Below, one piece after another: positions 5,552-64,000 of a DNA stretch of 64,000 nucleotides. Location: contig OZ244587.1 in NCBI GenBank assembly GCA_965218095.1, positions 5,536,001 to 5,600,000 of the forward strand. The letters run 5' to 3'. The notes below the pieces were generated by a model. It saw only the letters and a program-made list of their open reading frames with translations, searched no databases and had not been told where the DNA came from. Position numbers and translations under genes: made by a program. Within the stretch, counting starts at the first letter, position 1; the number at the start of each line of letters is the position of its first letter. Origin of the DNA: Candidatus Poribacteria bacterium. Its GTDB lineage: Bacteria > Poribacteria > WGA-4E > PCPOR2b.

Positions 5552-6352
5552 ATGATGAAGAAATACCTCGCTTTTACGGCAAAAGCCTTTCAGCGGATGC
5601 TGACATATCGGTTCGAATTATGGATGGAACTGTTTATCAACGTGCTGTTCATGCTGGTCTATGTCTATCTGTGGAAGGCATTATACACGGAGCGAACATC
5701 GGTAGAAGGATACGACCTGAACGGGATTCTGACGTATATCGTCATCTCACAGACCTTGCTGTCCTTCACTTTTACACTCCGGGTGACGCGTATTATCGAA
5801 GATAAGGTACGCACCGGCAAGGTGGTCACGGATTTAATGAAACCGGTCGATTTTCAGTTGATGACGCTTGCTACGGCCGCGGGAACTTCGAGCCATATGG
5901 CACTATTCAATATGTTCCCCAAACTCTTACTGTTTTACGGCCTTCTGAGGCTATCGCTACCGCCATCGCTTTCGACTGTAGGGCTCTTTATCATCAGCGT
6001 GGTCTTAGGGTATCTCATTCTATTTAGTATCGAATTTATAATCGGCATGTTGGCCTTCTGGCTTGTCGAAGTCCGCGGCATTTACTACTTTGTTGTATGG
6101 GGGGTATCTATGTTGTTTTCAGGCTACTTTCTGCCGTTGGAGTTCTATCCCGACTTCTTAGCCAAAATCGCGGCGCTCTTGCCGTTTCGTGCTATTATCT
6201 ATTTTCCAACGGCCCTTTATACCGGCCAATTGACAGGCACCTCCCTGGTCACGGCACTGTTGATACAATTGACATGGGTGGTTGTGTTATTGGGGCTTGG
6301 GCGACTTGGATACCGCGCGGACTTCCGGAAACTGGTTGTTCAGGGCGGATAA
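5552..6352 (+). CDS. ABC-2 family permease (DUF990-like)
   Basis: About six TM segments, DLMKP and LPFRAIIYFP motifs; follows the ATPase. Confidence 0.88.
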   Translation: MMKKYLAFTAKAFQRMLTYRFELWMELFINVLFMLVYVYLWKALYTERTSVEGYDLNGILTYIVISQTLLSFTFTLRVTRIIEDKVRTGKVVTDLMKPVDFQLMTLATAAGTSSHMALFNMFPKLLLFYGLLRLSLPPSLSTVGLFIISVVLGYLILFSIEFIIGMLAFWLVEVRGIYYFVVWGVSMLFSGYFLPLEFYPDFLAKIAALLPFRAIIYFPTALYTGQLTGTSLVTALLIQLTWVVVLLGLGRLGYRADFRKLVVQGG

Positions 6353-6538
6353 AATGAGTACAACTGAAAAATGGTCTGAATCACGAATTAAACAGATGGC
6401 ACGGATAACGCGGATTAAGAACCGATTCAACCTTTCGATAATAAATCCGCGAACAGTCGGCAATTCGGACAATTTCTGAATCCCCGAAGGGCAAGATACA
6501 AGGACAAACGTCAATCTTCCATTCGTCGCGATACGTTC

Positions 6539-7650
6539 TGTCAAGTCCTGGTTCTGTTGACATTTCAAGGGAGCCATATAAGAGTAGAGACAAAGCTGAG
6601 AAATCCAAAATAACGGATAGCTAACTTCTCGAACCGAGAGAAGATGCGGCGATACCATTTTATCTTGTTAATGAAACATTCAACCAGATGTCTCTCTTTG
6701 TACAGATGTTTGTCGTAATCTCTTTGGTCAACACGATGACTTTTGGGCGGTATCACCGCAATCGCTCCATTCGCCTCAATAACGGCGATAAAATTGTCGG
6801 AGTCATATCCCTTGTCTCCAATCACATACTCGCTTTTATATCCAAGTATCAACCCTTCTGCTTCCGCTATGTCGTTTCTTTGACCGGGTGTCAGATGTAT
6901 TCTTAGGGGATTACCCAGGCCGTCAACGGTGATGTGAATTTTTGTACTGAATCCCCCGCGAGAGCAGCCTAACGCTTGGTTTTCAGTGCCACCCTTTTTT
7001 TTAAGGCACCCGCCGCAGACGGGTGCGCGCGGCAGATTGTACTGTCCACAATAAGCGACTCGATATCGGGGTCGGCGGCGAAGTGGGGATGCATCTGTGT
7101 GAAGACCCCTTTGTCGCACCACCGAGCAAACCGCTTATAGAGGGTGTTCGATTTACCATAGGTGTCTGGCAGAAGTCTCCATTGAGCCCCGCTACGGGGC
7201 GCCCAGAGAACAGCTTCGATAAAGCGGCGTGTTGTCGCTTCGTTGCCAACATAGATGGTGGGACAAGTTAGAAGAAACGAGTATATCTTTTTCCATTGGT
7301 CATCGGGTAAGGTTATTGGCATCATTCTTCTATTATGCCACAACCTTATACTCAAATATCAACAGAACCTAATATAGGTTTACATGAAATCACCTGAACT
7401 TCTAGTCATTTAGAGAGACTTTTTGACGACTTTTCTGATAAACCGCCTCAGGGGTTTGATATCCCAAACTGAGATGAGGCCGCTCGTTGCTATAGATAGA
7501 AACGCTTTGTTTGACGCCAACTGTGGCTTGTTGTATCAAGCCAAAGGTCTGATTTAACAGAAAGTCGATTTTCAAAATGCCATTGACCTGTTCAGCGACG
7601 GCGTTTTGGTAGACGTCGCCGTTTTGTGTCATGCTCATTCGCACGCCATG
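6539..7650 (-). pseudogene. IS3 family remnant (integrase C-terminus and right end) with IS5 copy 1 inserted in its terminal repeat
   Basis: ORF 7402-7644 NAVAEQVNGILK...ERPHLSLGYQTP; on the minus strand the end reads TGTAAACCTATATTA[IS5]AGGACTTGACA. Confidence 0.75.
6550..7369 (-). mobile_element. IS5 family (IS427-like) element, copy 1; two ORFs joined by an A-run frameshift
   Basis: TIR GGTTCTGTTGA; ORFs 6969-7355 and 6565-7122 with RSGAQWRLLP, GDKGYDSD, ERHLVECF. Confidence 0.93.
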
Positions 7651-7701
7651 TGAATCAAGGAAATCGGTGTAGGTATGACAACAGTATTGGACACCTCACT
7701 T

Positions 7702-8492
7702 ATGCGACGTTACTGCAAACTCTACTTTCTTCTCGCCGGCGCGTATGTGCGCACCGGCTCTCGTTCGGTCTCATGTGCCTCGGAATCGTTGCCAGCGAAG
7801 CCTGTCTGCTCGGCCTGTTAGGTGCTTTGTTCGCCAAGTTTCGCGCTGTGAATGGGTGGACGTGGGCAGAAGTTGTATTCCTGTACGGCCTAGGGAACAT
7901 GGCGTACTCACTCATGATGATATTGGGCAGCCAGCTCGACGATTTTGACAGGTACATTATTCGTGGCGAGTTGGACACAGTGCTGATTAAACCTGTGCCG
8001 CCGCTATTCTACATTCTTGCGAGTCAAGTGGAGTTCATCCACGTCTCGCGGGCGTTAGCAAGTATCGCTATCTTCGTTGTCGCGTTCCACTTGACCGATA
8101 TCCCTTGGACGATGAGCGTTACGCTGTTCACCCTCACAACAATTCTGAGTGGTACGGTGATTATGTTTACACTCATGCTCATCACTGCCACTGTCGCGCT
8201 ATGGGCGACAAAATCGGGAAAATTGACCAATCTGCTCATTACCGCGACCAAAGAGGCAGCCACTTTTCCCATCTCCATCTACCCGCTCGCCGTGCGCCTA
8301 CTTTTGACGTTTATTCTCCCCGTCGCTTTCGTGACGTATTATCCCGCCCAGCGGCTCCTTCAGAAAGGTGAGTTTCTCGGTATGCCTGAATATTTTCAAT
8401 TCGGCGCGCCCTTCGTTGCCATTCTGTTGTTGTTTTTTAGCTATGTATTTTGGTGGCTCGGGCTGCGGCGCTATCACAGTACAGGCTCCTGA
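7702..8492 (+). pseudogene. ABC-2 family permease (second permease), frameshifted near the 5' end
   Basis: ATG 7702 gives MRRYCKLYFLLAGAYVRT, which is out of frame with RLSFGLMCLG...; motifs GELDTVLIKP, FPISIYP, YHSTGS. Confidence 0.75.
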
Positions 8493-10886: not shown

Positions 10887-12317
10887 CTAAGACGGCTGGA
10901 ATAACCGCGTTCGGGTTTCAGTCCAATCCTCCGGGAGCGGATGAAAGGCGCCTTCGCCACAGTACCCCGGTCCGATCTTGGTGGCGTGACCCTGGCCAGT
11001 GACCTGAAATCGTGTGCCATTGAGTTCTGGAAGAACGTACCGGCTAAACCAGAAAGCGAGTTGTTGGCGCATCTCCTTCACCAGCGCTTGTTTTGATTTC
11101 TCATCCACAAGGTTCTTCCGTTCGTCCGGATCGACAACTAGATCATAGAGTTCGTGGGGACCGTAAGGATAGCGATGCACATATTTCCATTCCTGTGTCC
11201 GTATCATGCGGACCGGTCCATATTCGTCGAAGATAACGACCCCATCCTGTGCATCATTTGTCTCACCGAGAAGCACCGGCAGAAAGCTTCGTCCGGGGCG
11301 CAGCGGATCTTCTGGGGTTTCCAAGCCGAGATAGTCAAGTAGGGTGAGCATGAAATCATACTGGCTCACCAACGCTTCGGTGACACGCCCTCGTGCGAAG
11401 TCTCCGGTGTGGCTCATGATAAAGGGGACTTTGACGGAGTTTTCGTACATATTTCAGAGGGAAGGTGCCATTCCCCTTGTGCCAGAAGCCGTGATGTCCA
11501 CAGGAATAACCGTTGTCGTTGCTGAAGATGATTAGCGTATTGTCCCGTAAGCCAAGCCGATTAAGCCGTTCCAAGATACGACCAAGGTTCAGATCCATCA
11601 CCGTTATCGCAGCGAAATAGCCCTTCAACGATTCCCGGTTCCCCATGTGGTTGCGAGAATCGGGTCTCGCCCAGGCGTGCAATGCTTCCTGGGGGCACGT
11701 TTTGAATGGGCAATCAGCGTAGGATCCACAATGTCCTGCGGGTGTCCGGTGAAAGGTGTGTGCGGTGCGTTGTAGTGGACGCTGAGATAGAACGACTGAT
11801 CTTTGTTCGCCTCAATAAATTGCAAGGCATCGTCCGTAATGACATCGGTGAGATAGCTAGGCTGCACGCCCACCACTCCATCACGAATCATCTCCGCGTC
11901 GTTATATTGACTTCCCCCGGTTGGCATCGAAAACCAGTGACTGAAGCCGTGCTGCTGCGTCATGCTGTCGCCGAGATGCCACTTCCCACTGAGTCCGACA
12001 GTATAGCCGTTGGCCTTCAGCACATCTGTGTAACAGGTGAGCCCCTCAAGGTATCTTGCGGGATTTGGCGGCATGTTTCCATCTCGAATCCAGTTATGCA
12101 CGCCGTGCGCCGACGGAATCCTCCCGGTCATCACGCTGGCGCGCGCCGGCGAACAGACGGGAGAGGTACAAAAAAAGTTCTCGAAACGCACGCCGGTCGC
12201 CGCTAATCGGTCAATATTCGGGGTGCGAACCTCATCATTCCCGCAGCAGCCTGCCGCCCAGGGCCCCTGATCATCCGTGAGAATAAAGATTACATTGGAT
12301 CTATTGGAATTAGACAT
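10887..12317 (-). pseudogene. Sulfatase with two frameshifts
   Basis: ILTDDQ, CSPAR, GKWHLG; the gene continues through ORFs 11625-12374, 11356-11682 and 10887-11450. Confidence 0.85.
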
Positions 12318-12476
12318 TAATTGCGTTCCTTTTTCGTCAACCTTCAGGGGTTCAGTTTCTAATTCCCATTGCAATGGTGTGAAGGTACATCTGCTTCAGA
12401 TGAATCAAATCTGACGACAAACCTTCCGAAGGTTACTGATGTTAATCGAATTCACCAATTTACCATTCACCCTTAC

Positions 12477-13961
12477 CTACATGGGCCCAATCCGTCGGGG
12501 CCCGCGGTCCATTGCCAACATTGATGCGTCATAGCTACGCTTCATCATCTCCAGCTTGAGACGCTGGAGGTCCGGTTCATCCCACAGGTTCTCAAACTCA
12601 CCCGGGTCAGTCGCCAAGTCGTAGAGCTCTCCATGTTCGTGTCCATGATATACCACCAGCTTATACCGCTCATCCCGGTACATCGTGGCAAAGGTACCAT
12701 CCGGCAGGTCAACGGCATCGTAGTACTCACAGCGGACGTAATCCCGATGATAATCAGCGGCAACCTCTCCCCTGAGGCTGAGCAGCAGCGATCGCCCCTG
12801 CATCTGCTCCGGTACGTTCAAATGAGCCAACTCCAGCAGGGTTGGCGCTTTGTCAAGCAGTTCTACCAGCGCATCGCTTTTCAACCCCTCCTCAAACTGT
12901 CCAGGCCAGGAGAAGATGAGCGGGACTCGGACCAGCCCCTCGTAGAACCGACACCCCTTCTGGATCAGCCCGTGATCGCCGAGCATTTCCCCGTGATCAC
13001 TGGTGAAGATCACCACCGTTTGTTCACGCTGCCCGGTTTCCTCCAGCACACCTAAGATACGTCCCACCTGATCATCGATCAACTTGATCATAGCGTAATA
13101 AGCGGCTTGCAGAGTTTTAGCGTTCTGTGCGCCTTGTGATGCTTGGTCAGGTTGGCCCCCTTGCTGCGGACTTTGGGGTAAGATCGGGCTGCGGATGTCC
13201 AGTTCGTCCGGAGACCGTCCCTTTGACTGGAAATCAACCGCTTCCAGCTTCTGTTGCTGTTCTAAGTCGCTTTCTCGGAAAAGCGGTCCCGGCATCTTCG
13301 ATGGCTCAAACATATCCCGGTAGGTCTTCGGCGGATTGAAGGGGGGATGGGGGTCGTAGATATTCACGCTTGCCAACCAGGGGGCATCCCGTTTTTGCTG
13401 AATAAATTCAATTGTCTTTTCCGCGCACCAGGTAGTTTGGTGGAGTTCAGCAGGAACCCCGTCAATACTTCTGGTCAACTCTCCCAGAATATACCCCTTT
13501 GACCGCGCCCAGTCTGCGTAGTCGTGTCCCTTCTCCCAGTCATCACGGGGTGCGTGGCTGTACTGCCAGTAGCGGTATCCGTCGTTCACGCGGGGTTCGA
13601 GGCGGCGGTACGCACTGGCAAGGTGTAGCTTGCCAATTAGACCGCAGTCATACCCGGCCTCGGATAGAATGCGGGTCACCAAGGGCGGGCTGTCCGGGAA
13701 GCATTCATTCCCGTTGCCGTTTACATGAACAACGCTCGGGTACATCCCAGTCAGAAAACTCGCTCGACTCGGCGTGCAGATTGGGCTCTGGCAGTAGGCG
13801 TGAGTGAAGGCTACCCCCTCCCGGACCAACCGATCGATATTCGGGGTTGAAACATGTGGGTTGCCCAGGGCACCAATCGTGTCGTAACGCTGCTGGTCTG
13901 TGCAGATCCAGAGGATGTTCGGACGCGGGCGCCCATTGTTTTTGTTGTTGTTCATAGTCAT
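12477..13961 (-). CDS. Sulfatase (Cys-type, choline-sulfatase-like)
   Basis: ICTDQQR, CTPSR, GKLH, SDHGEMLGDH, ELYDL. Confidence 0.93.
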   Translation of the reverse strand: MTMNNNKNNGRPRPNILWICTDQQRYDTIGALGNPHVSTPNIDRLVREGVAFTHAYCQSPICTPSRASFLTGMYPSVVHVNGNGNECFPDSPPLVTRILSEAGYDCGLIGKLHLASAYRRLEPRVNDGYRYWQYSHAPRDDWEKGHDYADWARSKGYILGELTRSIDGVPAELHQTTWCAEKTIEFIQQKRDAPWLASVNIYDPHPPFNPPKTYRDMFEPSKMPGPLFRESDLEQQQKLEAVDFQSKGRSPDELDIRSPILPQSPQQGGQPDQASQGAQNAKTLQAAYYAMIKLIDDQVGRILGVLEETGQREQTVVIFTSDHGEMLGDHGLIQKGCRFYEGLVRVPLIFSWPGQFEEGLKSDALVELLDKAPTLLELAHLNVPEQMQGRSLLLSLRGEVAADYHRDYVRCEYYDAVDLPDGTFATMYRDERYKLVVYHGHEHGELYDLATDPGEFENLWDEPDLQRLKLEMMKRSYDASMLAMDRGPRRIGPM

Positions 13962-14157
13962 GTTGAATCTCCTCATAGGCTTAGCAGATATGCTCCATAA
14001 ACAGTCAGCAGAGAGATTTTCTCCCGAAAATGGTTATTCCTCTGTGTACACCATACCTTCTATGTCATGTGTCTCTGATCCCTGGTCCCCACCTATGGCA
14101 TGTGTGCTTCCTCCTGAGGACCTTTCATTCCGACATACGATCCGAACTTGTAATTCT

Positions 14158-20801: not shown

Positions 20802-20857
20802 CATAGATAGATCACCAAGTTTTCGCTGTTATTTTAACTATTGTTATGGTGTAATTA

Positions 20858-21677
20858 GGTTCTGTTGACATTTGAGTATAAGGTTGTGGCATAATAGAAG
20901 AATGATGCCAATAACCTTACCTGATGAACAATGGAATAAGATATACCGGTTTCTTCTAAGCTGTCCCACCATCTATGTTGGCGACGAAGCTGCTACACGC
21001 CGCTTCGTCGAAGCCGTCCTGTGGGTGACTCGTAGCGGGGCTCAATGGAGACTTCTACCAGACACCTATGGCAAATGGAACACCCGCTACAAGCGTTTTG
21101 CTCGATGGTGCGACAAAGGTATCTTCACACAGATGCACCCCCACTTCGCCTCTGACCCCGATATCGAGTCGCTTATTGTGGACAGTACCATCTGCCGCGC
21201 TCACCCGTGTGCGGCGGGCGCCTTAAAAAAAACGGTGGGACTGAAAACCAAGCATTAGGTCGGTTTCGGGGCGGTTTCAGTACAAAAATTCACATCACAG
21301 TTGACGGACTAGGCAATCCGCTAAGAATTCATCTGACACCCGGTCAGAGACATGACATAACTGAGGCGGAAGGGTTGATAATCGGATATAACAGTGAATA
21401 TGTGATTGGAGACAAGGGGTACGATTCGGACGCTTTTATCGCGGTTATCAAGGCGAATGGAGCGATTGCGGTGATACCGCCAAAAAGTCATCGTGTTGAC
21501 CAAAGAACGTATGACAAACACTTATACAAAGAGAGACATCGGGTTGAATGTTTCATCAACAAGATAAAATGGTATCGTCGTATCTTCTCTCGGTTTGAGA
21601 AGTTAGCTGTCCGTTATTTTGGATTTCTCAGCTTTGTCGCCACTCTTATATGGCTCCGTTGAAATGTCAACAGAACC
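20858..21677 (+). mobile_element. IS5 family element, copy 2, apparently intact
   Basis: 16-bp TIRs, TA duplication, ORFs 20872-21258 and 21207-21662, A8 slippery site. Confidence 0.95.
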
Positions 21678-24050: not shown

Positions 24051-24106
24051 ATCTGGAAGTTCAGATGAAAGAAAACACAACCATTGTATAATAACCCAAG
24101 TTGCTA

Positions 24107-26182
24107 GGTTCTGTTGACATTTCAAGGGAGCCATATAAGAGTGGCGACAAAGCTGAGAAATCCAAAATAACGGACAGCTAACTTCTCGAACCGAGAGAAG
24201 ATGCGGCGATACCATTTTATCTTGTTAATGAAACATTCAACCCGATGTCTCTCTTTGTATAAGTGTTTGTCGTACGTTCTTTGGTCAACACGATGACTTT
24301 TTGGCGGTATCACTGCAATCGCTCCATTCGCCTTGATAACCGCGATAAAATTGTCGGAGTCATATCCCTTGTCTCCAATCACATACTCGCTTTTATATCC
24401 AAGTATCAACGCTTCTGCTTCCGCTATGTCGTTTCTTTGACCGGGCGTCAGATGAATTCTTAGTGGATTACCCAGGCCGTCAACGGTGATGTGATTTTTT
24501 GTACTGAATCCCCCGCGAGAGCAGCCTAACGCTTGGTTTTCAGTGCCACCCTTTTTTTTAAGGCACCCGTCGCACACGGGTGCGCTCGAATGATTGTACT
24601 GTCCACAATAAGCGACTCGATATCGGGGTCGGCGGCGAAGTGGTGGTGCATCTGTGTGAAGACCCCTTTGTCGCACCACCGAGCAAACCGCTTATAGAGG
24701 GTGTTCGATTTACCATAGGTGTCTGGCAGAAGTCTCCATTGAGCACCGCTACGGGTCGCCCAGAGAACAGCTTCGATAAAGCGGCGTGTTGTCGCTTCGT
24801 TGCCAACATAGATGTTGGGACAAGTTAGAAGAAACGAGTATATCTTTTTCCATTGGTCATCGGGTAAGGTTTATAATGGTCCCCAATATTCGGGCCAGGA
24901 GTTAAGTAAGAAATAACGTCTAACTCCCGTCCACCAATGGAGGTCTGAATATGTCAACCAAACGGATTCGGCATACTGCCAAATTCAAGTTTCAAATAGC
25001 CGTTGAAGCCATCAAGCCCGATAAAACTATCAACCAATTGGCAAGCGAGCATCAGTTGCACCCAAGCCAAATCAGCCAATGGAAGAAACAGTTGCTTGAA
25101 CAAGGTAGCGATATTTTCGCTACCAACCCGACCCAGCGACAGCGTGAGCAAAATGACAGGGAGTCGAGCCTGTATGAGCAAATGGGGCGGTTGAATATGG
25201 AACTCGACTGGTTGAAAAAAAAAGCTGCCTCAAGCCGCTGAACAGAGACGGGCACTCGTTGAACCCGACCACCTGAAACTGAGTATCCGTCGTCAGTGTG
25301 AATTACTCGGTTTTTCCCGGTCAACCCTCTACTGTCAACCGGCTACAGAGTCAGCAGACAATCTGCATCTGATGAGATAAATAGATGAGCAGTATCTGCA
25401 AACCCCTTTCTATGGGAGTCGTCGAATGACACAACATCTTAAGCGGCTTGGCTACCGTGTGAACCGCAAACGCATCCAGCGACTGATGCGTTTGATGGGT
25501 ATAGAAGCGATTTATCCCAAACCCTCAGCCATCAACAGCGAGCATCGGATTTACCCATACCTATTACGGGACTATGAGGTGACCGCTGCCAATGAGGTCT
25601 GGTCGGCTGACATTACCTATATCCCGATGGATAAAGGGTTTATGTATCTGGTGGCGATACTCGACTGGTATAGTCGTTACGTCATCACTTGGGAGTTATC
25701 CAATAGTCTATCAGGGCAGTTCTGTCTCGACGCTTTGCATCACGCATTATCTGGGGCAACCCCCATCATCTTCAATACTGACCAAGGTGTCCAGTTTACA
25801 GCCAATGCTTTCACCGATACGGTCGAAGCCGCTGATATTGCTATGAGTATGGACAGCGTGGGGAGAGCCATTGACAACATTTACATTGAGCGGTTTTGGC
25901 GAAGCGTCAAGTATGAAGATGTTTATCACAAACTTTACCAAACAGGGCAAGCCCTGTTTGATGGATTAACTCAATATATCCGTTTCTATAATCAACAGCG
26001 ACCTCACCAGAGTCTAAATTATGCTACCCCGGCTGAGGTCTATCTGAGCTAAAGCAGTGTCAGTTTATCTCAAATATCTTACTTATTTTTCCTGTATTTT
26101 GGCCTCGACAATGGGTCCACTTTAGTTATTGGCATCATTCTTCTATTATGCCACAACCTTATACTCAAATGTCAACAGAACC
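24107..26182 (-). mobile_element. IS5 family element, copy 3, interrupted by IS3
   Basis: TIRs at 24107 and 26182 with TA flanks; near-identical to copy 1. Confidence 0.92.
24872..26124 (+). mobile_element. IS3 family element nested in IS5; orfB has an internal stop
   Basis: 3-bp TSD GTT, imperfect TIRs, orfA 24951-25241 with A9G slippery site, WSADITY and IERFWRS, TAA at 25378. Confidence 0.92.
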
Positions 26183-26184
26183 TA

Positions 26185-26412
26185 GTGCTAGAAGCAATGT
26201 ATCAAGATTTACTTAATATGAGAACAGGAATAGCAAGAGATAATTTATCTCAAGAAAAAATCAGAAATATAAAAATTCATGTCCCGCCGCTTGATATTCA
26301 ACAGCGGTTAGTGGCAGAAGTCGAGCAATTAGAATCAGAAATCACCCAAGCCCAAGCCGTGATTGACAAAGCCACCGAGCGCAAAAATGTCATTCTCACA
26401 AACTATCTATAA
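26185..26412 (+). pseudogene. HsdS-like (type I/IIG RM specificity) C-terminal fragment
   Basis: NLSQEKIRNIKIHVPPLDIQQRLV motif; begins directly at the IS5 end. Confidence 0.75.
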
Positions 26413-26430
26413 AAAAACAGAAAAAAGCAC

Positions 26431-26504
26431 ATCAGTTGTGGCGGATTCGGTTAGTTGTACACTTTTTGGCAAACTTGCGCTGCAACTGATCTCAGTAATT
26501 AAAC
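26431..26504 (+). repeat. Degenerate attC-like hairpin
   Basis: ATCAGTTGTGGCG / CGCTGCAACTGAT followed by CTCAGTAATTAAAC (degenerate R' box). Confidence 0.4.
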
Positions 26505-26531
26505 GAAGTCAGAGAAAGGAGCAAGAGGAAA

Positions 26532-27785
26532 TTGGGACCAATCACGCTCTTCGATAAATCGTTCCTACAGTCGCTTAACGTTGATGAATCGGTGTGGTTT
26601 GACAACTTCTTCTATTCTATTATCTGCCCGATCTTCTATGTGGAGACACTGGCGGATCTAAAAAAGCCAAAACTTCACAGACCCCCTGAACAAGAAGTTG
26701 GAATAATCGCAGACAAGTTTCCGGAAATGCACTGTGCACCAACACTGCATCATCAAGAGATGGTGATAGGTGATTTGCTAGGAAACCATGTTCCACTCAC
26801 TGTCCGGATTCCAAGAGACCCTAGTCGGCTCGTGAAATCCGATAGACATAAAGGTGTTATTTTCGAGGAATCGCCTGAAGAAGAAGCGTTTCTTCGTTGA
26901 CAGTCAAGAGAGTTTCATGACCTTGAACGCAAATTCGCAAGCACTTGGCGTACGAATCTTGAATCCCTTGATTTAAAAAGGATTCCTGATGAATTCCGGA
27001 ATCTTGGGATATCAGGCCGTAATTGCAAGTCATTACAAGAAGCCAAGTCAATCGCTGACGCTCTTGTAAACGGGACCGACAAAACACTTGAGGCGTTGAG
27101 ATTTGTGTTCTTTATTCTTGATGTTCCAGAAAGAGATCGCAACTTAATAATGGAACGTTGGTTAAAATCCGAGTTGCCATTTCTGTCAAGCTTTGCTCCG
27201 TACGCTGCGCATGTTCTAACGATAGAGATCTTCTTCCGAATCTCGCTTGAAGCCAGCCAAATTTCGTCGGATCGACCCTCGAATCGTTTAGATATCGCTT
27301 ATCTGTACTATCTTCCTTTCTGCCAAGTGTTCGTTTCATGGGACAAACTTCATCGTCGATGCGCTCCTCTCTTCTTGAGAGAAAACCAGACCTTCATTTG
27401 GGGGCCAGAACTAGAAAGTGCACTATCTGCCCTGGATCAACACTACAGTGCCTTGCCGGAAAGCGAAAAAGAAAAAGGCGTGATGCACTTTGCGCCATAT
27501 CCTCCAACCGAAATTGAGTCAATCATATCGCAAGAATGGGATAAATATCTGCATGGCTGGCGAGAATGCGCACAGGAGCCACCGATTAAACCAGATCTGA
27601 ATCCCGGGATCGTTAAGGAATTGACAAACCTTACTGAAGCCCCACCTCTACAGCCGGAGGCGGTCGATTTCAACCCAGAAGATGCCAACGTAATGGCTGT
27701 AAAGCGAAGGGTGCGTAAGACAAAGGGAAAATGGTGGCAGTTACCCCGCGACTTAGAGGATAAGAACGATGAGAAAAGCCGATAA
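26532..27785 (+). pseudogene. Hypothetical cassette gene of about 417 codons with one in-frame TGA
   Basis: ORFs 26532-26900 and 27096-27785 share a frame; the only stop is at 26898 (FLR*QSREF); ends 2 nt before an attC. Confidence 0.8.
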
Positions 27786-27787
27786 GC

Positions 27788-27841
27788 GGCTAACAAGTGG
27801 GTCAAGCGGACCCGCGAGGCCGCTTACCCAAGTCGTTAGGG
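27788..27841 (+). other. Integron attC site
   Basis: GGCTAAC...GTTAGGG; GGT(C)AAGCGG(A)CC pairs with GGCCGCTTACC leaving two extrahelical bases. Confidence 0.85.
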
Positions 27842-27858
27842 AAAACGGGGAGGACAAA

Positions 27859-28122
27859 ATAGCAATATCACCAAAGTGCATCGTATTCGCATTGATTTTC
27901 ACCGTCTCGGTTTTCCTCGTTTACGTTTTGGCGACTGATACCATCAGAATGAAGATGGATCTGCCACAGCGAATCAATGCTTCTTTTCGACTATTTAAAA
28001 CTCAAAATATGTGGACGCATCTTCTGCTAGACACGCGCAATGGACGTGTTTGGCAAGTTAGCTTTAGTGTCAATGCAGAAGGTCTTAACGGGAATGTTAA
28101 TATCATTGTTACTTTTACTTAA
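27859..28122 (+). pseudogene. Truncated secreted hypothetical protein (cassette gene)
   Basis: GGAGG then ATA in place of ATG, signal-like segment, FRLFKTQNMWTHLLLDTRNGRVWQV. Confidence 0.5.
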
Positions 28123-28149
28123 CCTGATAGTAAAAATAAGGAGGGAGAT

Positions 28150-28857
28150 ATGCTACGCTTTATCTGGGTCGCGTGCCTGATGGCTTTTATCGGCTTTGGC
28201 TGTGGTGGTGATGATGCCACTGATGGTGGTGGCACTCCCACGGTACGTCTTGTCAAAGATACCAGTGATAGTGATCACCTTCATACCAGTGGTAGTTATC
28301 ACCTTCAGTGGGATGAACCGCTTTTAGCGGATCGGATAGTTTTAGTCCATGTGATATATAACCCTATAAAGTACACTAATAGAAAGATTACCTTTCTATT
28401 TGGTGAGAGTCATCAATCTGAGAAATTTACCCTTCCTAACTATCATCGAGAGCTTACCGCCCGCCTTCGCGGGGAGCTTACCGCCCGCCTTAAGTGGATT
28501 CTTAAGGGCTCTCAGAAGGACGGTTTTTACTTTGAGCGGACAGGATTGGGTCAAGAGGAAATGTGGGTGGACTTTCGTTTTCCGTATCTCGGAGAGAGGG
28601 TTATTGAAGACTACTTGTACATCTGCCGCACGGGAAATATTCAATCGGAGCAAATCCAAGTTTCTCAATTTTCTCCTTCGGTTCTGATAAAGCTCCCCCC
28701 CGCAGATGATCGGTTTAATAATCTCGAGCTGCCCAAGAGCGCATATAATGCGAATGGTGAGGGTGACGAGAAAATTCTTGTCGAATATCCATTTCAACCG
28801 TACAAGGTAGGCGATCCGTCAGAGCTTACCTTCGAGTGGAGAAAGGAAGGTTCTTAA
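28150..28857 (+). CDS. Hypothetical lipoprotein
   Basis: Lipobox GFGC, RBS; internal duplication ELTARLRG-ELTARL. Confidence 0.75.
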   Translation: MLRFIWVACLMAFIGFGCGGDDATDGGGTPTVRLVKDTSDSDHLHTSGSYHLQWDEPLLADRIVLVHVIYNPIKYTNRKITFLFGESHQSEKFTLPNYHRELTARLRGELTARLKWILKGSQKDGFYFERTGLGQEEMWVDFRFPYLGERVIEDYLYICRTGNIQSEQIQVSQFSPSVLIKLPPADDRFNNLELPKSAYNANGEGDEKILVEYPFQPYKVGDPSELTFEWRKEGS

Positions 28858-28986
28858 TCATGAAACTTTCTGATTAGCTTCCGAGTCTTATTACCGCCAA
28901 GCTTATTATTGCCTCTGCCTTCTTTGGTTATGCTACGTTAAAGGAGGATGTCAAGCTGTTATCCAAAGACATAGAGAATATTCGCA

Positions 28987-29220
28987 GTGAACTGTCAGCG
29001 CAACGTCAAGAATTTCGTGCGGACTTACAAGGCGTCCGCGCACAAAGGCAAGTTCTTGGTCATTGACATCGAAACGGGTGAATACGAAATGAACGCTGAC
29101 GATTTGGTAGCCACGAAACGTCTACTTGCCAAGCATCCCAATGCTGTCGTTTACGGTTTACAAATCGGGTTTCCAACTGCTTATCGAATCGGCGGACACT
29201 TTTCGGTGAAAACACAATGA
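28987..29220 (+). pseudogene. Small DUF5678-like gene, followed by a vestigial MITG... start
   Basis: HKGKFLVIDIETGEYE...IG motif; overlapping ATGATAACTGGA start of a truncated partner. Confidence 0.5.
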
Positions 29221-29242
29221 TAACTGGAACGGAGAGTTTTTG

Positions 29243-29488
29243 ATGGACTACAAAATACCACTTGTTCTGACACCACCACCTGAAGGGGGATATACAGTGA
29301 CTTCCCCTCTGTTGCCTGAGTTGGTAACCGAAGGTGATTCGTTAGACGAAGCATTAGAAAACGTCAAAGACGCTCTTGCTGCGGTCATTGAGCTATATCA
29401 GGATCTGGGACGTTCATTGCCTGAGAACACCCAGATTCCTGACGCGAATAGTCCCGTGTGGCTAGAAACGGTGGTCTCCGCCTCATGA
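29243..29488 (+). CDS. hicB: HicB family antitoxin
   Basis: EGGYTVTSPLLPELVTEGDSLDEALENVKDAL. Confidence 0.88.
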   Translation: MDYKIPLVLTPPPEGGYTVTSPLLPELVTEGDSLDEALENVKDALAAVIELYQDLGRSLPENTQIPDANSPVWLETVVSAS

Positions 29489-29525
29489 AATATCGAGAAG
29501 TTGCTCGAAAATTAACAGCCCTTGT
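29485..29525 (+). pseudogene. HicA toxin 5' remnant
   Basis: Overlapping ATGA; MKYREVARKLTAL, then a break into attC sequence. Confidence 0.65.
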
Positions 29526-29583
29526 CGGTAAACCCCCGCCGTGCTCGTCCGATTCATCGGACAACTGAGGTTGGTCGTTAGGC
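29525..29583 (+). other. Right arm of an attC carrying a palindromic insertion
   Basis: CCCCCGCC[GTGCTCGTCCGATTCATCGG]ACAACTGAGGTTGGTCGTTAGGC; compare 31385-31417. Confidence 0.65.
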
Positions 29584-29625
29584 GCCAAAAGAGACCATCA
29601 TTGAAAAAGAGGAAATATTTGAAGA

Positions 29626-31077
29626 ATGCCGGTTAACGCTATCCAAGAGATTAAGAGAACCGAAGATACCAGAGATGATATGCTTTTGGGGCAGATAGAG
29701 GAACTCGATAAATCCCTAACCGAATATTTTCCCGATACGCTTGTCGTTGATAATGCTTTGACCAGAAAACTGGTCAGTTTCCAAGCCAATAAAGCCCGTA
29801 CACACTATAGATGGTACAAATACAAAGAGGCATTTTCTGCTGATTTAGTGGAATATCTTTTCCGCAAGTATAATGTAATAAAAGGTAAAATACTGGAGCC
29901 TTTTGCGGGTGCGGGGACCGCTTTATTTGCCTGTTCCTCTTTGGGTTATCACTCTGAAGGTATTGAAGTATTACCGATTGGGCAAAAAATCATAAGAGCA
30001 AATGTGCTCGCTAGAGGTGCGAATAAACAGAGCATTGTTTCTGGATTAGAAAGCTGGTTACTTCAAAAGCCTTGGAAGGCCGAAGGTGAAATTAAGGATT
30101 TTGAAGTGCTTCGTATAACCGATGGCGCGTATCCTCAAAAAACACACCACAAAATCGGAAGGTATCTAAATGAGTTGGAGGGTGAACCTCCAGAAACAAA
30201 AGAGATATTACTGTTTGCCCTGTTATGCATTCTGGAGCCGATAAGCTATACAAGGAAAGATGGGCAGTACCTCCGATGGGATTACAGATCTGGACGCAGA
30301 AATGGTAAAAACACCTTTGACAAAGGAAAGATTTTGCCATTCGATGAAGCCATTGTAGAAAAGCTAAACGAAATAAAAGATGATATTAACCTTGGGGATG
30401 GCAAGGACGATCTATTCTCATTTATGCAGGAGGATATACAGGCAGGCGATGTGAATTTATTAAAAGGGTCATGTTTAGAGGTTCTTCCGAAATTGGAAAG
30501 CAGGGCTTATTCTGGGATAATTACATCACCACCCTACTGCAATCGTTATGATTATACACGCACTTATGCCTTAGAACATGCACTGCTTGGGGTTGATGAA
30601 ATTGGGTTAGCGGGCTTGCGGCAAGCGATGTTAAGCTGCACGGTAGAAAACAAAGCGAAAGCACTGATTGACCTAAATCCCGAATGGCAAACGGCTATAG
30701 GCATTTGTGATGGCTTACCTTTATTGCAGGGGGTATTGAACTATTTGGATTACAAAAGAGATAAAAAAGAACTCAATAACAGTGGAATTACTCGTATGGT
30801 GAGAGGTTATTTTTATGAGATGGCTTGCGTTATCCAAGAATGTTACAGGGTATTGGATAAAGGCGGCATGATGTTCATGGTTAATGACAATGTTAGGTAT
30901 GCTGGGACTGCAATATCTGTAGATACAATCCTCTCAAAAATAGCTGAAGACATTGGATTTCAAATAGAAAATATCCTTGTTCTGCCTCAAGGTAAGGGGA
31001 ATAGCTCCCAACAAATGGGTAAGCACGGACGCGAAGCACTAAGAAAATGTGTCTATGTATGGAAAAAGGATCAATAA
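29626..31077 (+). CDS. N4-cytosine DNA methyltransferase (M.AvaI/M.BsoBI-like)
   Basis: EPFAGAGT motif I, TSPPY catalytic motif, KGNSSQQMG; AT-rich; adjacent to a BsoBI-like fragment. Confidence 0.88.
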   Translation: MPVNAIQEIKRTEDTRDDMLLGQIEELDKSLTEYFPDTLVVDNALTRKLVSFQANKARTHYRWYKYKEAFSADLVEYLFRKYNVIKGKILEPFAGAGTALFACSSLGYHSEGIEVLPIGQKIIRANVLARGANKQSIVSGLESWLLQKPWKAEGEIKDFEVLRITDGAYPQKTHHKIGRYLNELEGEPPETKEILLFALLCILEPISYTRKDGQYLRWDYRSGRRNGKNTFDKGKILPFDEAIVEKLNEIKDDINLGDGKDDLFSFMQEDIQAGDVNLLKGSCLEVLPKLESRAYSGIITSPPYCNRYDYTRTYALEHALLGVDEIGLAGLRQAMLSCTVENKAKALIDLNPEWQTAIGICDGLPLLQGVLNYLDYKRDKKELNNSGITRMVRGYFYEMACVIQECYRVLDKGGMMFMVNDNVRYAGTAISVDTILSKIAEDIGFQIENILVLPQGKGNSSQQMGKHGREALRKCVYVWKKDQ

Positions 31078-31167
31078 ATGCCGTTTAATAACCACCTGAA
31101 ATCGTACGAAAATTTAATTACTCCCTATGAGGAGACGCGGGCAGGATTTATTTCCTTTATGCTTTAA
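31078..31167 (+). pseudogene. AvaI/BsoBI-family restriction endonuclease 5' remnant
   Basis: MPFNNHLKSYENLITPYEETRAGFISF resembles the BsoBI N-terminus as recalled. Confidence 0.75.
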
Positions 31168-31289
31168 TAGAACAAACACCGATGAAGGCACTCACATACT
31201 GAATCAAAACCTCTGCTATTCTAAACGGCGAAAAATGGGTCAATGAGTGGCTGGCAACATGCAATTGATTCAAAGTATCCAGTGAACGC

Positions 31290-31417
31290 ACCTAACCAGC
31301 TGTTGCAGTTGACGGCGGGGCACTGTGGTTTTATGACTGTTTTTGGTTTGTGGCGGGGTTTGGTTGTCGGATGTGTTTCGGCAACCCCCCGCCACAACTG
31401 AACTTGGGGCGTTGGGC
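31290..31417 (+). other. Integron attC site
   Basis: ACCTAAC...GTTGGGC; GTT(G)CAGTTG(A)CGGCGGGG pairs with CCCCGCCACAACTGAAC. Confidence 0.8.
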
Positions 31418-31502: not shown

Positions 31503-32744
31503 TTGAAAAGATTTATCACTTTTCACTTATGGGTTGCAATCCTGATCTCGATTCTCAGCGCCGATCTCGCGGAGCCACAGAAGAATTCTCTGAGTGTCGT
31601 CGGCGCGTTGAGCGGCGAGACCGACAAGGGATTCGCTCGCGCCTTTGAGCCAATGACACTTCAGTTTCCACACGATCACGGCCCACATCCAGGCTATAAA
31701 ACCGAGTGGTGGTATTATACCGGCAACCTGCGGACTGATAGTGGTCAAGATTTCGATACGCCCCGCTACGCGAGGGCAGAGCCTGCCCCGATTCATCGAA
31801 TCTCTTCTGCTACTCAATCCAAGGATTTTGGCTATCAACTTACCTTTTTCCGCTTCGCCCTAACACCTCAAATGCCAGAGCGGATTTCAAATCTTGCCAC
31901 GAACCAGATTTACATGGCCCACTTTGCCCTGACAGATGCAGCACACAGTCAGTATTTCTGCTTTGAACGCTTTAGCCGGGGAGCTGGCGAACTGGCAGGA
32001 GCGACAGGAGAGCCAACGTATGAAGTCTGGCTGGAGAATTGGTCAGCTAAAGAAGTAGAGCCGGGCGTAGTACGCTTGCAGGCAGTGGACGATCAAATGG
32101 AACCACAAACAGCAATTGATCTGACGCTGCGAGAGACACACCTACCGATACTGCATGGCAACCGTGGTTTAAGCCAGAAAGGTCCAGAGCCGGGCAACGC
32201 CAATTACTACTATAGTCTCGTACAGTTGGAGACAATTGGCGACATCACGAGCAATGGCAAAACGATGACAGTTAGCGGGCTCAGTTGGATGGACCATGAG
32301 TTTGGCACCAGCGCCCTCGCGGAAAGGGTGGTGGGTTGGGACTGGTTCAGCTTACAGTTGGAGAACGGTGCTGCGCTGATGCTGTACTGCCTTCGCCAAT
32401 CCGATCAGTCATACGCTCCGCACACTTTTGAAGGCACTCTGGTATACCCTGATGGGCGGCAGTTGCGTATCGGGATGGCGGATTTCACGCTGACCCCCAG
32501 GGGCAAGTGGACCAGTCCGAAAAGTGGCGCCGCCTATCCCTCCGGCTGGCACGTCGTCTTTCCCGAATTAAACATTGATTTGCAGATCGAACCCCTCATC
32601 CCGAATCAGGAGTTTCACATTAGCTTTACGTATTGGGAAGGCGCTGTACGGGTCAGTGGACAGATGGACAGCGTAACAGTCAGCGGTCGAGGATATGCTG
32701 AGTTAACTGGCTACAGTGATTCATCAGGTCAGTATCTGAGGTGA
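31503..32744 (+). CDS. Secreted AttH/CrtC lipocalin-like protein with an in-frame REP insertion
   Basis: [39 protein letters not shown]. Confidence 0.88.
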
Positions 32745-51509: not shown

Positions 51510-52835
51510 TGTAATTACCCCCAAAACCTAGACAGTTGACTAAGATGGATTTCTAACTGGCAAGCCGGTCATCATCTGTGCGAAAATATGGGTCAGAAAC
51601 GCCCAGAAAAAGAAAGGAGTTTTCATACCATGTCCCGCAGAAAACAGCAGAAAACAGCAGAAAACAGTACGATGGTCGATTCAAAGCACAGGTGGCTATT
51701 GAGGCGATAAAAAACCAACAAACCGTCGCTCAGATTGCCAGTCATTACGGTGTCCACCCGACTCAAGTAAGCCAATGGAAAAAGCAGGCTCTTGAACAAC
51801 TACCTCAACTGCTTGCAAACGGACGCCCAAAAGCAGCCTCTGACAACGACCAGTTAGTTGATGAACTCTATCGCCAAATCGGACAGTTGAAGGTGGAACT
51901 CGACTGGCTTCAAAAAAAAACGCAACTGCTCCGTTGAACAGAAGCGACAGCTTGTTGAAAAGGGGTGCCATTCACCGTCAGTTGTCAGACAATGCGAACT
52001 GCTGGGTTTGTGCCTCGTTCTATTACCGACCCGTAGGCGAGTCGCCACACAATCTGCTCTATATGCGTCTGATAGATGAGCAGTACACAAAGACACCGTT
52101 CTATGGCGTCCCTCGATTGACGGTATGGCTTCGTTCCCAAGGGCATGTTGTCAATCGAAAGCGGGTGGCTCGGTTGATGCGAAAGATGGGATTGGCTGCC
52201 ATCTATCCGAAGCCCAAGCCCTCGGGTATAGCTAAACCGTCGAAGATGTATCCCTATCTACTGAAGGGATTAAGTATCATCAGACCGAATCAGGTCTGGG
52301 CAACGGATATAACCTATATTCGCTTGACTCGTGGTTTCGTTTATCTAGTAGCGGTTATGGATTGGTTTTCCCGGTACGTGGTGTCGTGGGAACTTTCAAA
52401 CTCACTAGACGTATACTTTTGTCTGTCGGCTCTCGAACGCGCACTTAGCCAATTGAGACCGTTGATATTCAACAACGACCAAGGCAGTCAATTTACTTCT
52501 GATGCTTTTACAGCTCGACTTCAAGCGGCTCAGATTGCCATCAGTTGGGACGGCAGAGGCAGCTATTTTGACAATATCTTTATTGAGCGGCTCTGGCGCA
52601 GTGTCAAGTATGAGGAGGTCTATCTCAACGACTATGACTCCGTTACTACAGCTTGGCGTCGATTGAGAGACTATTTCAACTTTTACAATCAACAGCGGTT
52701 TCATCAATCGCTCAATTATCGAACACCGCACGGGGTGTATTTCCAATAATTTCAGGCGTTTCACCCTGACCGAGTTGGTCAGATTGTCTATCTTAAATCT
52801 CATTCATTGCTGTCTGAAGGATGGGGGTAAGTTCA
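51510..52835 (+). mobile_element. IS3 family element, degenerate
   Basis: TIR TGTAATTACCCCC..AGACAG / CTGTCT..GGGGGTAAGTTCA; WATDITY, IERLWRS; no TSD. Confidence 0.9.
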
Positions 52836-52837
52836 GG

Positions 52838-53260
52838 ATGAAGTCAGAAGTTGCAAAGAACGACATTCTTATGACATCTGAAGCACCACTCGGTCAGGTT
52901 TACTATTTAGCCGAAAAGAAGAAAATCTGTTTAAGTCAAAGACTGTTTTGTATCAGGGCTAATCCGAATATCATCAAACCTTCCGTTCTATTCTATATGA
53001 TTGGTTCACCTGCGATCCAGAATCAACTCCATGCAAGAGCTACAGGAACAACCGTGTTGGGTATCCGGCAAGCAGCCCTGCGAAAAATATCCGTGATAAT
53101 CCCACCTCTGCAATTACAGAGAAAAGCCGAATCGGTTTTGGGAACACTCATCACTACCAAAGAAACACTTGAAAAAAAGAACACCAACCTCCGCTAAACC
53201 CGCGACCTTCCACTCCCCAAACTCATCTCAGGGGAGATTGACGTATCCGACCTTCTCCTT
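52838..53260 (+). pseudogene. Type I RM HsdS C-terminal fragment
   Basis: ATGTTV.GI, IIPP, NLR*TRDL.LPKLISGEIDV. Confidence 0.8.
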
Positions 53261-61892: not shown

Positions 61893-64000
61893 CTACTTCA
61901 GTATCAGCATCTTCCGCGTTGCCGTGAACTCGCCTGCTCTCAGCGTGTAAAAATAGATACCGCTCGCAACAGATTCTCCGACTGCATTTCTGCCATCCCA
62001 ATATGCCGCGCGACTCTGGCTCTGATACATGCCTACATCTTGATGTCCTAGGGCTAAGGTGCGTACCACTGTTCCATCCAACGCATAGAGCATCAGCGTA
62101 ACATCGGCAGGCTCTGCCAACCGATACGGTATCCACGTCTCCGGATTGAAGGGGTTCGGGTAATTTGGTAATAGCAACGTTTCGTTCGGAGTTAACGCTG
62201 CCAAGAGTTGTTCTAAGAAGCGAATGCCTCGTTGGAATGTTGCATCTGTAAGGTCCAATTGCTGCGCTTGTGTGAGCCACTGTCGTACTTCTGTTGCGGT
62301 GAGCGATTCAAGGACTTGTGGATGCGCTGAAGGTGCGGCTGCTGCATCCCCAAACATGCCTGCGACCAGGACCAAATCCAGAATATTCACAATCCCATCT
62401 CCACTAACATCTGCTGCCAAATTTTTTCCTTCATTTCCAAGCTCGGACGCGACCAGGACCAAATCCAAGATATTCACGGTTCCATCGCTGTTGACATCCG
62501 CCGTTCGCACTGCGCTGTCGTCAAACTGTATCTCCACCCCTCTGCTTTGAATGATGGGAATGTGGGCGTGGATGGATCCATAGCTAAGGGGGTTTTCACT
62601 TACATCCACCTGGTCCCCACGCCCCAGTCTAGTATTTGCGACTAAGGGTGAGAGGTCCGATATGTTATTATCTTCAAGCCGCAGTACTGTCAGGTTGGTT
62701 AATCCTGCTATCGCTGATATGTCCGTTATATTATTACCTCCAAGCCACAGTCTTGTCAGGTTGATTAATCCTGCTATCGCTGATATGTCCGTTATGTTAT
62801 TGCCTATAAGCCCCAAGAATGTCAAGTTAGTTAATCCCGCCACGGGCGATATGTCCGTTATGTTATTGTCTGTAAGCCCCAGTCCTGTCAGGTTAGTTAA
62901 TCCTGCTATCGCTGATATGTCCGTTATGGAGTTCTCCCAAAGCCCCAGTCCTGTCAGATTAGTTAATCCTGCTATCGCTGATATGTCCGTTATGTTATTG
63001 CCTTCAAGCCGCAGTACTGTCAGGTTAGTTAATCCTGCTAGGGCAGAGATATCCGATATAGAATTGTCCCTAAGATACAGGCTTGTCAGGTTGGTTAATC
63101 CTGCCAAAGGCGAGAGATCAGATACTGAGTTGCTGTTAATGGAACGTCCCTCCGTCTCCACATACTCAGTGCCAAGATGCAGTGTTGTCAGATTGGTTGC
63201 ACTTTCAAGCCCGGTCAAATCGCTAATGTTAGCGTTACGGGCGGAAAGTCGGGTCAAAGTCAGCATATCCGCTACAGTGATGGTGTCACCTGACGTTTTG
63301 CCGCGAGCGTTCTCAATGACAGCGCGGAGGTTGGGGTCGGGTATATCCACCGTTTGGGCAATGTCCTCCGATTGCACGACGATGCTGTCAAATTCTACCC
63401 TAACCCCTCTGCTTTGAAGAGCAGGAATGTGGGTGTCGATGGATAGGGAGTTCAGGAAATTGCCCCTCGCATTAACCCTGTCTCCTCTCCCCAGTCCTGT
63501 ATTTGCAACTAAGGGTGAGAGGTCCGATATAGAATTATTGTCAAGCCCCAGTCTAGTCAAGTTGGTTAATCCTGCCAGGGGTGAGATGTCTGTTATGTTA
63601 TTGCCTTCAAGCCACAGCACTGTCAGGTTGGTTAATCCTGCCAAAGGCGAGAGATCAGATATTGAGTTGCTGTTAATGTAAAGTTCCTCCGTCTCCACAT
63701 ACTCAGTGCCAAGATGCAGTGTTGTCAGGTTGATTGCACTTTCAAGCCCGGTCAAATCGCTAATGTTAGCGTTACGGGCGGAAAGTCGGGTCAAAGTCAG
63801 CATATCCGCCACAGTGATGGTGGCACCTGACGTTTTGCCGCGCAGGTTCTCAATTACGGCGCGTAGGTTGGGGTCAGGTATATCCACCGTCTGCGCTATG
63901 TCCTCTGGTCGCACGACGATGTCGTCAAACTGGATAGCAACTCCTCTGCTTTGGAGGGCGGGAATGTGGGTGTTGATGGATACGGCGTTGAGGAAGTTTC
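61893..64000 (-). CDS. Internalin-like LRR protein with dockerin-like and FlgD-type C-terminal domains; 5' end lies outside the window
   Basis: IPDPNLR caps, 22-aa LTNLTxLxLxxNxIxD repeats, DVNSDGTVNILDLV, NYPNPFNPETWIPY. Confidence 0.93.
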   Translation of the reverse strand, partial: NFLNAVSINTHIPALQSRGVAIQFDDIVVRPEDIAQTVDIPDPNLRAVIENLRGKTSGATITVADMLTLTRLSARNANISDLTGLESAINLTTLHLGTEYVETEELYINSNSISDLSPLAGLTNLTVLWLEGNNITDISPLAGLTNLTRLGLDNNSISDLSPLVANTGLGRGDRVNARGNFLNSLSIDTHIPALQSRGVRVEFDSIVVQSEDIAQTVDIPDPNLRAVIENARGKTSGDTITVADMLTLTRLSARNANISDLTGLESATNLTTLHLGTEYVETEGRSINSNSVSDLSPLAGLTNLTSLYLRDNSISDISALAGLTNLTVLRLEGNNITDISAIAGLTNLTGLGLWENSITDISAIAGLTNLTGLGLTDNNITDISPVAGLTNLTFLGLIGNNITDISAIAGLINLTRLWLGGNNITDISAIAGLTNLTVLRLEDNNISDLSPLVANTRLGRGDQVDVSENPLSYGSIHAHIPIIQSRGVEIQFDDSAVRTADVNSDGTVNILDLVLVASELGNEGKNLAADVSGDGIVNILDLVLVAGMFGDAAAAPSAHPQVLESLTATEVRQWLTQAQQLDLTDATFQRGIRFLEQLLAALTPNETLLLPNYPNPFNPETWIPYRLAEPADVTLMLYALDGTVVRTLALGHQDVGMYQSQSRAAYWDGRNAVGESVASGIYFYTLRAGEFTATRKMLILK

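Follow-up and report, generated by a model that had tools for sequence, protein, structure and literature searches.

A probable remnant of an integron cassette array in a Poribacteria-like chromosome

Introduction

In a complete integron, the integrase gene intI lies with attI and the Pc promoter next to the cassette array. Clusters of attC sites that lack an integron-integrase (CALINs) are defined by at least two attC sites that lie within 4 kb on the same strand and have no integron-integrase as a neighbour (PMC4889954), a two-site threshold that was kept in IntegronFinder 2.0 (PMC9024848). They are described as abundant, with heterogeneous attC sites and few known cassettes, and the loss of intI, rearrangement and insertion at secondary sites are named as their possible origins (PMC4889954); 2,961 CALINs were counted in the complete genomes of RefSeq (PMC9024848). 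Sedentary chromosomal integrons, in turn, are described in a preprint as stores of cassettes for anti-phage defence and of toxin-antitoxin (TA) cassettes (10.1101/2024.07.02.601686). Here we analyze a locus at positions 26185-31417 of a 64,000-nt stretch of DNA, referred to as the window, which is probably the remnant of an integron cassette array of the CALIN kind, now decaying in a Poribacteria-like chromosome.

Because CALINs are common and defence and TA cassettes have already been described, the element itself is ordinary in kind. Its new angle is the host alone, as integrons may hereby extend to Poribacteria, a candidate phylum whose members are sponge symbionts. Judged by titles and the opening lines of abstracts, the literature holds no report that we found of integrons in Poribacteria, and a listing within a survey table is possible. 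A preliminary description of the locus, made from the letters of the DNA, had guessed at a Poribacteria-like host, and this guess is backed by the nearest relatives of a 417-codon gene in the array, which reside in two metagenome-assembled genomes (MAGs) of Candidatus Poribacteria and share 80% and 79% amino acid identity with its product. The contigs of these MAGs, L014 and L015 respectively, served as comparison loci. The locus provides evidence of integron-type recombination sites in a Poribacteria-like genome, together with a family of sites of ~130 nt that it has in common with a Poribacteria MAG.

Results and discussion

Two attC sites are present on one strand

Thirteen class 1 integron regions were taken from plasmid records, and the attC sites within them were located behind annotated cassette genes. 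Two covariance models were derived from these sites: R1 was built from 7 plasmid class 1 attC sites with canonical structure, and R2 from 11 different class 1 attC sites that were re-aligned with R1. This bootstrapping from 7 well-aligned sites was used in place of a MAFFT alignment of 11 attC sites, in which the 3' arms were misaligned. Similarly, the covariance models took the place of our own scan for R boxes and aligned arms, which ranked the two sites described below at the top (score 16) and proved too unspecific, with two unrelated places scoring 15 and 14. The window was scanned with R1 and R2 on both strands (128 kb of strand) with the filters off.

Under both models, the best two matches in the window are the same two sites on the + strand. 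Site A (27788-27841, 54 nt) scores 33.5 bits with R1 (E 4e-6) and 35.3 bits with R2 (E 2.9e-7), and site B (31290-31417, 128 nt), the last site of the array, scores 23.8 bits with R1 (E 1.3e-3) and 25.0 bits with R2 (E 2.2e-4). The next-best match reaches 12.6 bits with R1 and 10.1 bits with R2, the latter model returning 6 matches in total at E up to 10. The E-values of both models are rough; empirically, the two sites clear the background by about 12 bits or more. As controls for R2, six true attC sites outside its training set scored 42.7 bits (lnu(F)), 30.1 bits (arr-3), 28.5 bits (arr-2), 24.8 bits (dfrA14), 15.5 bits (an unnamed cassette) and 9.5 bits (dfrA1), while the maxima were 10.2 bits for non-attC DNA of the plasmid loci and 13.7 bits for true sites read on the wrong strand. 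Measured against these held-out sites and this background, A and B behave like true attC sites. Both had been called complete in the preliminary description, and both were recovered by the models at the same coordinates. Rfam, applied to the whole window at its gathering threshold, returned 0 matches and no attC family.

The two sites share a common geometry, in which an R'' box ending in AAC is followed by 5 nt, a 3-bp step, one bulge, a 6-bp L box, a bulged A, a variable center, the mirror arm and the R' box; 9 of 9 L-box pairs are formed in A and likewise in B. Relative to the box consensus (R'' = RYYYAAC, R' = GTTRRRY), the boxes of site A (R'' GGCTAAC, R' GTTAGGG) contain one mismatch each, and those of site B (R'' ACCTAAC, R' GTTGGGC) are exact matches. 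Site A carries both of the extrahelical bases that had been attributed to it, C27803 and A27810. When its bottom strand is folded as DNA, the canonical structure has the lowest energy (-13.9 kcal/mol, z -3.0), and the recombinogenic fold has a probability of 0.72, which places A at the upper end of 16 true sites (1.8e-6 to 0.74). For site B the corresponding probability of 5e-5 is low, yet it falls within the values seen in long true sites, for instance those of blaOXA-1, dfrA1 and arr-3. The position of A relative to its gene is also as previously noted, since the stop codon (27783-27785) of the gene at 26532-27785 ends 2 nt ahead of the site. Both A and B are intergenic and closely follow the end of a gene. 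In our own reading, the heptamer GTTAGGC at the start of B's own cassette is complemented by the R'' box of B at 6 of 7 positions, versus 5 of 7 for the R' box that B has at present, and this better complementarity may be regarded as a cassette signature.

Site A is of the same length class as the attC sites of the class 1 cassettes aadA5 and aadA1 (plasmid loci L005 and L001), 54 nt as compared to 57-60 nt, and these sites have the same geometry and bulges; they differ from A in the ends of their R boxes, in host and in cargo. The similarity to aadA5 extends to the sequence itself, as the L'' core TCAAGCGGAC is common to both sites. This bears on one alternative, namely that neither site is related to integrons and that an ordinary island of defence and TA genes contains hairpins, such as terminators, that match by chance. 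The region is indeed a mosaic of remnants of restriction-modification (RM) and TA systems and of insertion sequence (IS) elements, as is typical of defence islands. A chance match is nevertheless highly improbable in our judgment, because A resembles attC in sequence as well as in structure (E about 3e-7), AAC and GTT boxes occur at the exact spacing in both sites, and no T run follows either of them.

The array has no integrase within reach

The preliminary description had reported that no tyrosine recombinase is present in the window, and our searches agree with it. Among the 66 open reading frames (ORFs) scanned, none has a Phage_integrase match in Pfam, and when all 64 kb were searched with IntI1 by tblastn, the best match had an E of 3.3. 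Neither intI nor a remnant of it was detected within 26 kb on either side of the array, and the 10 kb that apply to a CALIN hold no integron integrase or intI pseudogene. The end of A (27841) and the start of B (31290) are separated by 3,449 nt. With two attC sites at this distance on one strand and no integrase in the window, the locus fits the definition of a CALIN, and its earlier designation as an integrase-less, CALIN-like array is upheld. Like the CALINs described in the literature (PMC4889954, PMC9024848), it has at least two attC sites that share a strand at a distance below 4 kb with no intI nearby, its attC sites are heterogeneous, its cargo is unlike resistance cassettes, and IS elements are adjacent to it. 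It differs from them in that only two sites pass a model and the rest appear to be fossils, and in its Poribacteria-like host.

The locus also lacks the layout of a complete integron, as no intI is present in the window and the upstream side has been replaced by IS elements. The left boundary (24105-26184, - strand) consists of an IS5-family copy (24105-24871 and 26125-26184) that is split by an IS3-family element at about 24872-26124, as delineated by the repeat families D2, D6, I2 and I3 and by the Pfam matches DDE_Tnp_1, HTH_Tnp_1 and rve. The IS5-family copy ends at 26184 and cuts short the array's first gene, a Type IIG/HsdS-like gene, which bears out the earlier impression of a decaying array fragmented by IS elements.

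This boundary lends some weight to a second alternative, in which the genome as a whole does encode the integrase. The array would then be part of a complete integron, with intI either outside the window or split off by an IS-mediated rearrangement, and its cassettes could still be mobilized. The IS elements cut the array upstream, exactly where intI would be expected; about half of CALINs reside in replicons that encode IntI, and rearrangements are described to split integrons (PMC4889954); moreover, draft assemblies inflate CALIN counts (PMC9024848). We regard this alternative as unlikely, though as the most serious one. Besides the 26 kb without intI on either side, the heavy decay of both cargo and sites speaks against ongoing selection or turnover, and no tyrosine recombinase was found in L014 or L015, either among the ORFs scanned with Pfam or by tblastn with IntI1.

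A family of B-type elements marks the array and a related genome

The preliminary description had listed four attC sites, adding to A and B a half site that ends at 29583 and a degenerate site near 26500. A and B pass the attC model, whereas these two, here named C and D, fail. Site C (29522-29583, + strand) is the 3' half only of an element of the type of B, with the R' box GTTAGGC at 29577-29583 and its 5' half missing. Site D (26431-26504, + strand) is a degenerate relative of B, with an inverted repeat (26431-26443 and 26478-26490), no R'' box, and ATTAAAC (26498-26504) in the position of R'. Neither site was matched in the whole-window scans with R1 or R2; local R2 searches of short stretches gave at most 5 bits (0 bits in the case of D), and the folds of C and D are no better than those of shuffled sequences. 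Neither call is confirmed as an attC site, and what is left is their relationship to B in sequence: D shares 69% identity with B over 58 nt (E 0.018, blastn), and C aligns with the 3' arm of B in two collinear blastn segments.

Two further elements of this type, e1 and e2, are found in L014. Element e1 shares 77% identity with B over 102 nt (E 5e-15) and is located between a complete Type IIG enzyme of 1229 aa and the 417-aa homolog, the same position that D occupies in the window; it is a fuller ortholog of D. Element e2 shares 74% identity with B over 76 nt (E 4e-8), is located at the end of a 144-codon ORF, and keeps an R''-like box (GCCGAAC) along with the full 5' architecture. Site C aligns with the 3' half of e2, and a block of 20 nt is common to C and e2 and absent from B, so there are apparently two subtypes of the B-type element. 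In the window, the three B-type elements (B, C and D) all lie inside the 5-kb array and none occurs in the other 59 kb, and in L014 the matches lie only beside the orthologous Type IIG and 417-aa genes. Over about 88 kb of Poribacteria-like DNA they are therefore not scattered in the manner of repetitive extragenic palindromic (REP) elements, a possibility that had been named as fatal to the original interpretation. We read C, D, e1 and e2 as probable fossil cassette junctions on the strength of these sequence relationships, and keep a lineage-specific repeat as the rival.

Several observations weigh against reading the locus as a former cassette array. R1 and R2 are surrogates with rough E-values, built from 7 and 11 class 1 sites, and are distinct from the model used by IntegronFinder. 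Site B is atypical: it has a 3' spacer of 7 nt rather than 6 nt and a G as the first bulge where the model has a C, and its 3' arm can pair perfectly with an inner repeat (31348-31358), a pairing that beats the canonical one when the energy is minimized. Of the five B-type elements, four fail or escape the attC model, as C, D and e2 reach at most 5 bits (4.7 bits for e2) and e1 is without a match in a filters-off R2 scan of L014, and D, e1 and e2 read ATT where the invariant GTT of the R' box belongs. The second cassette, between A and B, comprises several genes and fragments with no attC match between them. Lastly, no attC site was found beside homologs of the 417-aa protein: in the 10 loci retrieved by a genome scan with this protein (L014-L023), R2 with default filters gave 0 matches at E <=1 in 10 of 10, and with the filters off the best match in 7 of the 10 reached 12.3 bits, which indicates that the 417-aa family is not generally cassette-borne.

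A third alternative draws on some of these points. It holds that only A is a true attC, left by a single stray cassette at a secondary site, and that the B-type elements (B, C, D, e1 and e2) are a structured intergenic repeat specific to Poribacteria that is attC-like by chance in one copy. The four failing copies, the three copies with ATT instead of GTT and the non-canonical minimum-energy fold of B would all be in keeping with it, and cassette insertion outside att sites, mediated by the integrase, is reported in a preprint (10.1101/2022.09.11.507474). Three features of the elements nevertheless make it improbable. The 25 bits of B are about 12 above any background in roughly 469 kb of strand scanned with the filters off; B and e2 have a common 5' architecture (an R''-like box, 5 nt, 3 nt, a bulge, CAGTTG, A, C); and the B-type copies are clustered and co-oriented at gene ends as opposed to being dispersed.

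A broader proposal can be made tentatively, with somewhat more doubt than confidence: Poribacteria may have, or may recently have had, an active integron system with an attC family of its own of ~130 nt (the B-type), which would mark cassette boundaries in at least two genomes and whose fossil junctions (D and e1) would have been kept between the same two genes. Were this true, integrons would extend to a phylum for which we found no report of them. The B-type family could then seed an attC model specific to the lineage, for use in mining the cassettes of sponge symbionts, and a search for the missing integrase in these organisms.

A model for the decay of the array

From the identity of the sites, the layout, the state of the genes and the relatives, we infer past integrase activity and present immobility. 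In our model, an integron integrase would once have inserted the cassettes via the folded bottom strands of their attC sites, and the array, now without an integrase, attI or a Pc promoter in reach, is eroding. The IS5/IS3 pile-up has removed everything upstream of 26185, and internal deletions account for the loss of half of one attC site (C) and of the larger part of three genes. The 417-codon gene has acquired a nonsense mutation, and the boundary site D has lost its R boxes. Only A and B appear to keep all features of a recombination site. With an integrase supplied in trans, recombination of A with B would be expected to excise 27836-31411 as a single circle of 3,576 nt, and nothing else at the locus would be mobile. 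Read in this manner, the locus is a clear case of cassette-array decay that combines truncation by an IS element, the loss of R boxes, the deletion of a half site and the survival of the harmless partner of toxic pairs.

Defence modules of the cargo are incomplete

The array is ordered as the Type IIG/HsdS-like remnant, D, the 417-codon gene, A, small genes and fragments, a HicB-like gene with a 27-codon ORF, C, a methylase gene, an endonuclease stub and B. Every credible gene in 26185-31417 is on the + strand, and the GC content of this interval is 41-47% as compared to about 50% in the flanks. The preliminary description had presented the array as carrying defence genes, which overstates its contents, because no defence system in it is intact.

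Of the first gene (26185-26412), which is of the Type IIG RM or the HsdS-like specificity kind, only 75 codons at the C-terminal end are left. It matches Methylase_S in Pfam (3.3e-7), positions 1202-1269 of 1271 of the PADLOC profile REase_MTase_IIG (9.2e-13) and, by tblastn, residues 1130-1229 of the Type IIG enzyme encoded in L014 (1229 aa). No other piece of the truncated gene was found in the window by tblastn.

An RM pair of the AvaI/BsoBI type had also been proposed. Its methylase half stands: the gene at 29626-31077 is intact and encodes a Type II DNA methyltransferase (483 aa) that has become an orphan and matches the PADLOC profile MTase_II (PDLC03224, 3.3e-163) over positions 26-480 of 481 as well as N6_N4_Mtase in Pfam. 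The endonuclease half does not, as the gene downstream (31078-31167) is a stub of 29 codons followed by two stop codons. The stub matches the start of BsoBI (PDB 1dc1, residues 6-33 of 323, phmmer E 2.6e-6), and its position behind a full-length methylase corresponds to RM systems of the BsoBI/AvaI type; it differs from them in that the endonuclease is cut to 29 of about 323 codons, which leaves no working RM pair. The HicB-like antitoxin gene (29240-29488; Pfam HicB_lk_antitox, 1.2e-6, 29.1 bits versus a cut-off of 27) has no neighbour that matches HicA and hence does not form a HicAB pair. Its stop codon is overlapped by the 27-codon ORF (29485-29568), which has no match to HicA or any other family in Pfam and may be the stub of a toxin gene. 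The labels 'DUF5678-like', 'aspartyl-protease-like' and 'hicA stub', which had been considered for small genes, have no support in Pfam and were either dropped or retained as inference. The methylase and HicB probably persist since they are harmless, even protective, without their toxic partners. As compared to the sedentary chromosomal integrons described in the preprint (10.1101/2024.07.02.601686), the locus has the same RM/TA-type cargo and a family of attC sites (the B-type) with members both inside the array and in a related genome; it differs in that it has no integrase, is tiny, and contains no defence or TA module that is complete.

The cassette gene ahead of A (26532-27785) has 417 codons and is interrupted by an in-frame TGA at 26898-26900. 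As 12 of 12 aligned homologs have a Trp at this column, we consider it to be a recent pseudogene. Its family comprises 2,381 homologs of about 416 aa with a highly conserved N-terminus (MGPITLFDKSF...CPIFYVETLADLKK), and is represented in Poribacteria, Binatia, Pseudomonas, Myxococcota and others, where the genes as a rule stand by themselves amid unrelated ones. The gene follows a Type IIG RM gene in Poribacteria; a conserved RM partnership beyond this phylum was considered and rejected, as the homologs stand alone among unrelated genes in 8 other loci. The family is without a lead to its function in Pfam, NCBIfam and PADLOC, none of which gave a match, and a profile search of PDB gave a best E of 0.35. 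A protein atlas gave unnamed clusters only, with a PIN-containing cluster at 0.82 that is a lead at most.

Between A and the HicB-like gene, the stretch at 27842-29239 contains further cargo and fragments on the + strand, the ORFs of which have no family matches. These include a small ORF at about 27949-28122, a lipoprotein-like ORF at 28150-28857, within which two 24-nt tandem duplications are present (28259-28306 and 28450-28491), and the end of a gene at 29008-29220. At the latter, 70 codons are left from the 3' end of a small gene of which L015 has the complete form (tblastn of L015:3360-3629, 77% over 70 aa).

L015 contains a different wreck of the same island

Pieces of the array are common to the window and L015, and their order and junctions differ. 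In L015, the 417-aa gene is directly followed by 53 nt that correspond to the end of the methylase gene and the start of the endonuclease gene (31033-31085 in the window), and after this block comes the small gene, which is whole there and lacks its 5' part in the window. The junctions in L015 are without attC sites. L015 is thus a different wreck of the same island. The IS3-family element of the left boundary is 87.6% identical to an IS3 of L015, where it takes the place of site D. Comparison of L015 (727-2005) with the window (26422-26496) shows that the IS3 replaces the palindromic core of D, and its insertion at exactly this position suggests that the IS may target the D hairpin.

Other features of the window

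The IS5-family element of the left boundary is present in three copies in the window (6550-7373, 20854-21677 and 24105-26184) that share 89-95% identity. One copy interrupts a pair of ABC-2 transporter genes (5552-8492). The second and third copies are inverted around a 2.4-kb segment, in which an SRAP peptidase and a fragment resembling enolase are encoded; an inversion mediated by the IS or a composite element is suggested by this arrangement. At 51578-53197, a second, different IS3-family element is directly followed by a 140-codon Methylase_S (HsdS-like) fragment (52775-53197). The idea that this fragment derives from the Type IIG gene truncated at 26185 was rejected, as it gave no tblastn match at E 1e-3 or better.

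Downstream of B lies a gene for a secreted, CrtC/lipocalin-like protein, which in our reading of the sequence probably starts at the TTG at 31503 and consequently does not overlap the site. At the far end of the window, 61893-63914 (- strand) encodes a large leucine-rich-repeat protein with a dockerin domain and a FlgD Ig-like domain, with 66-nt tandem repeats at 62580-63710; it looks like a eukaryote-like repeat protein as expected in symbionts. Upstream of the array, a sulfatase at 10887-12374 (- strand) appears to be split over two ORFs, one containing the Sulfatase N-terminal part and the other the SGSH_C part, and is probably a frameshifted pseudogene, with an intact paralog alongside it at 12477-13976.

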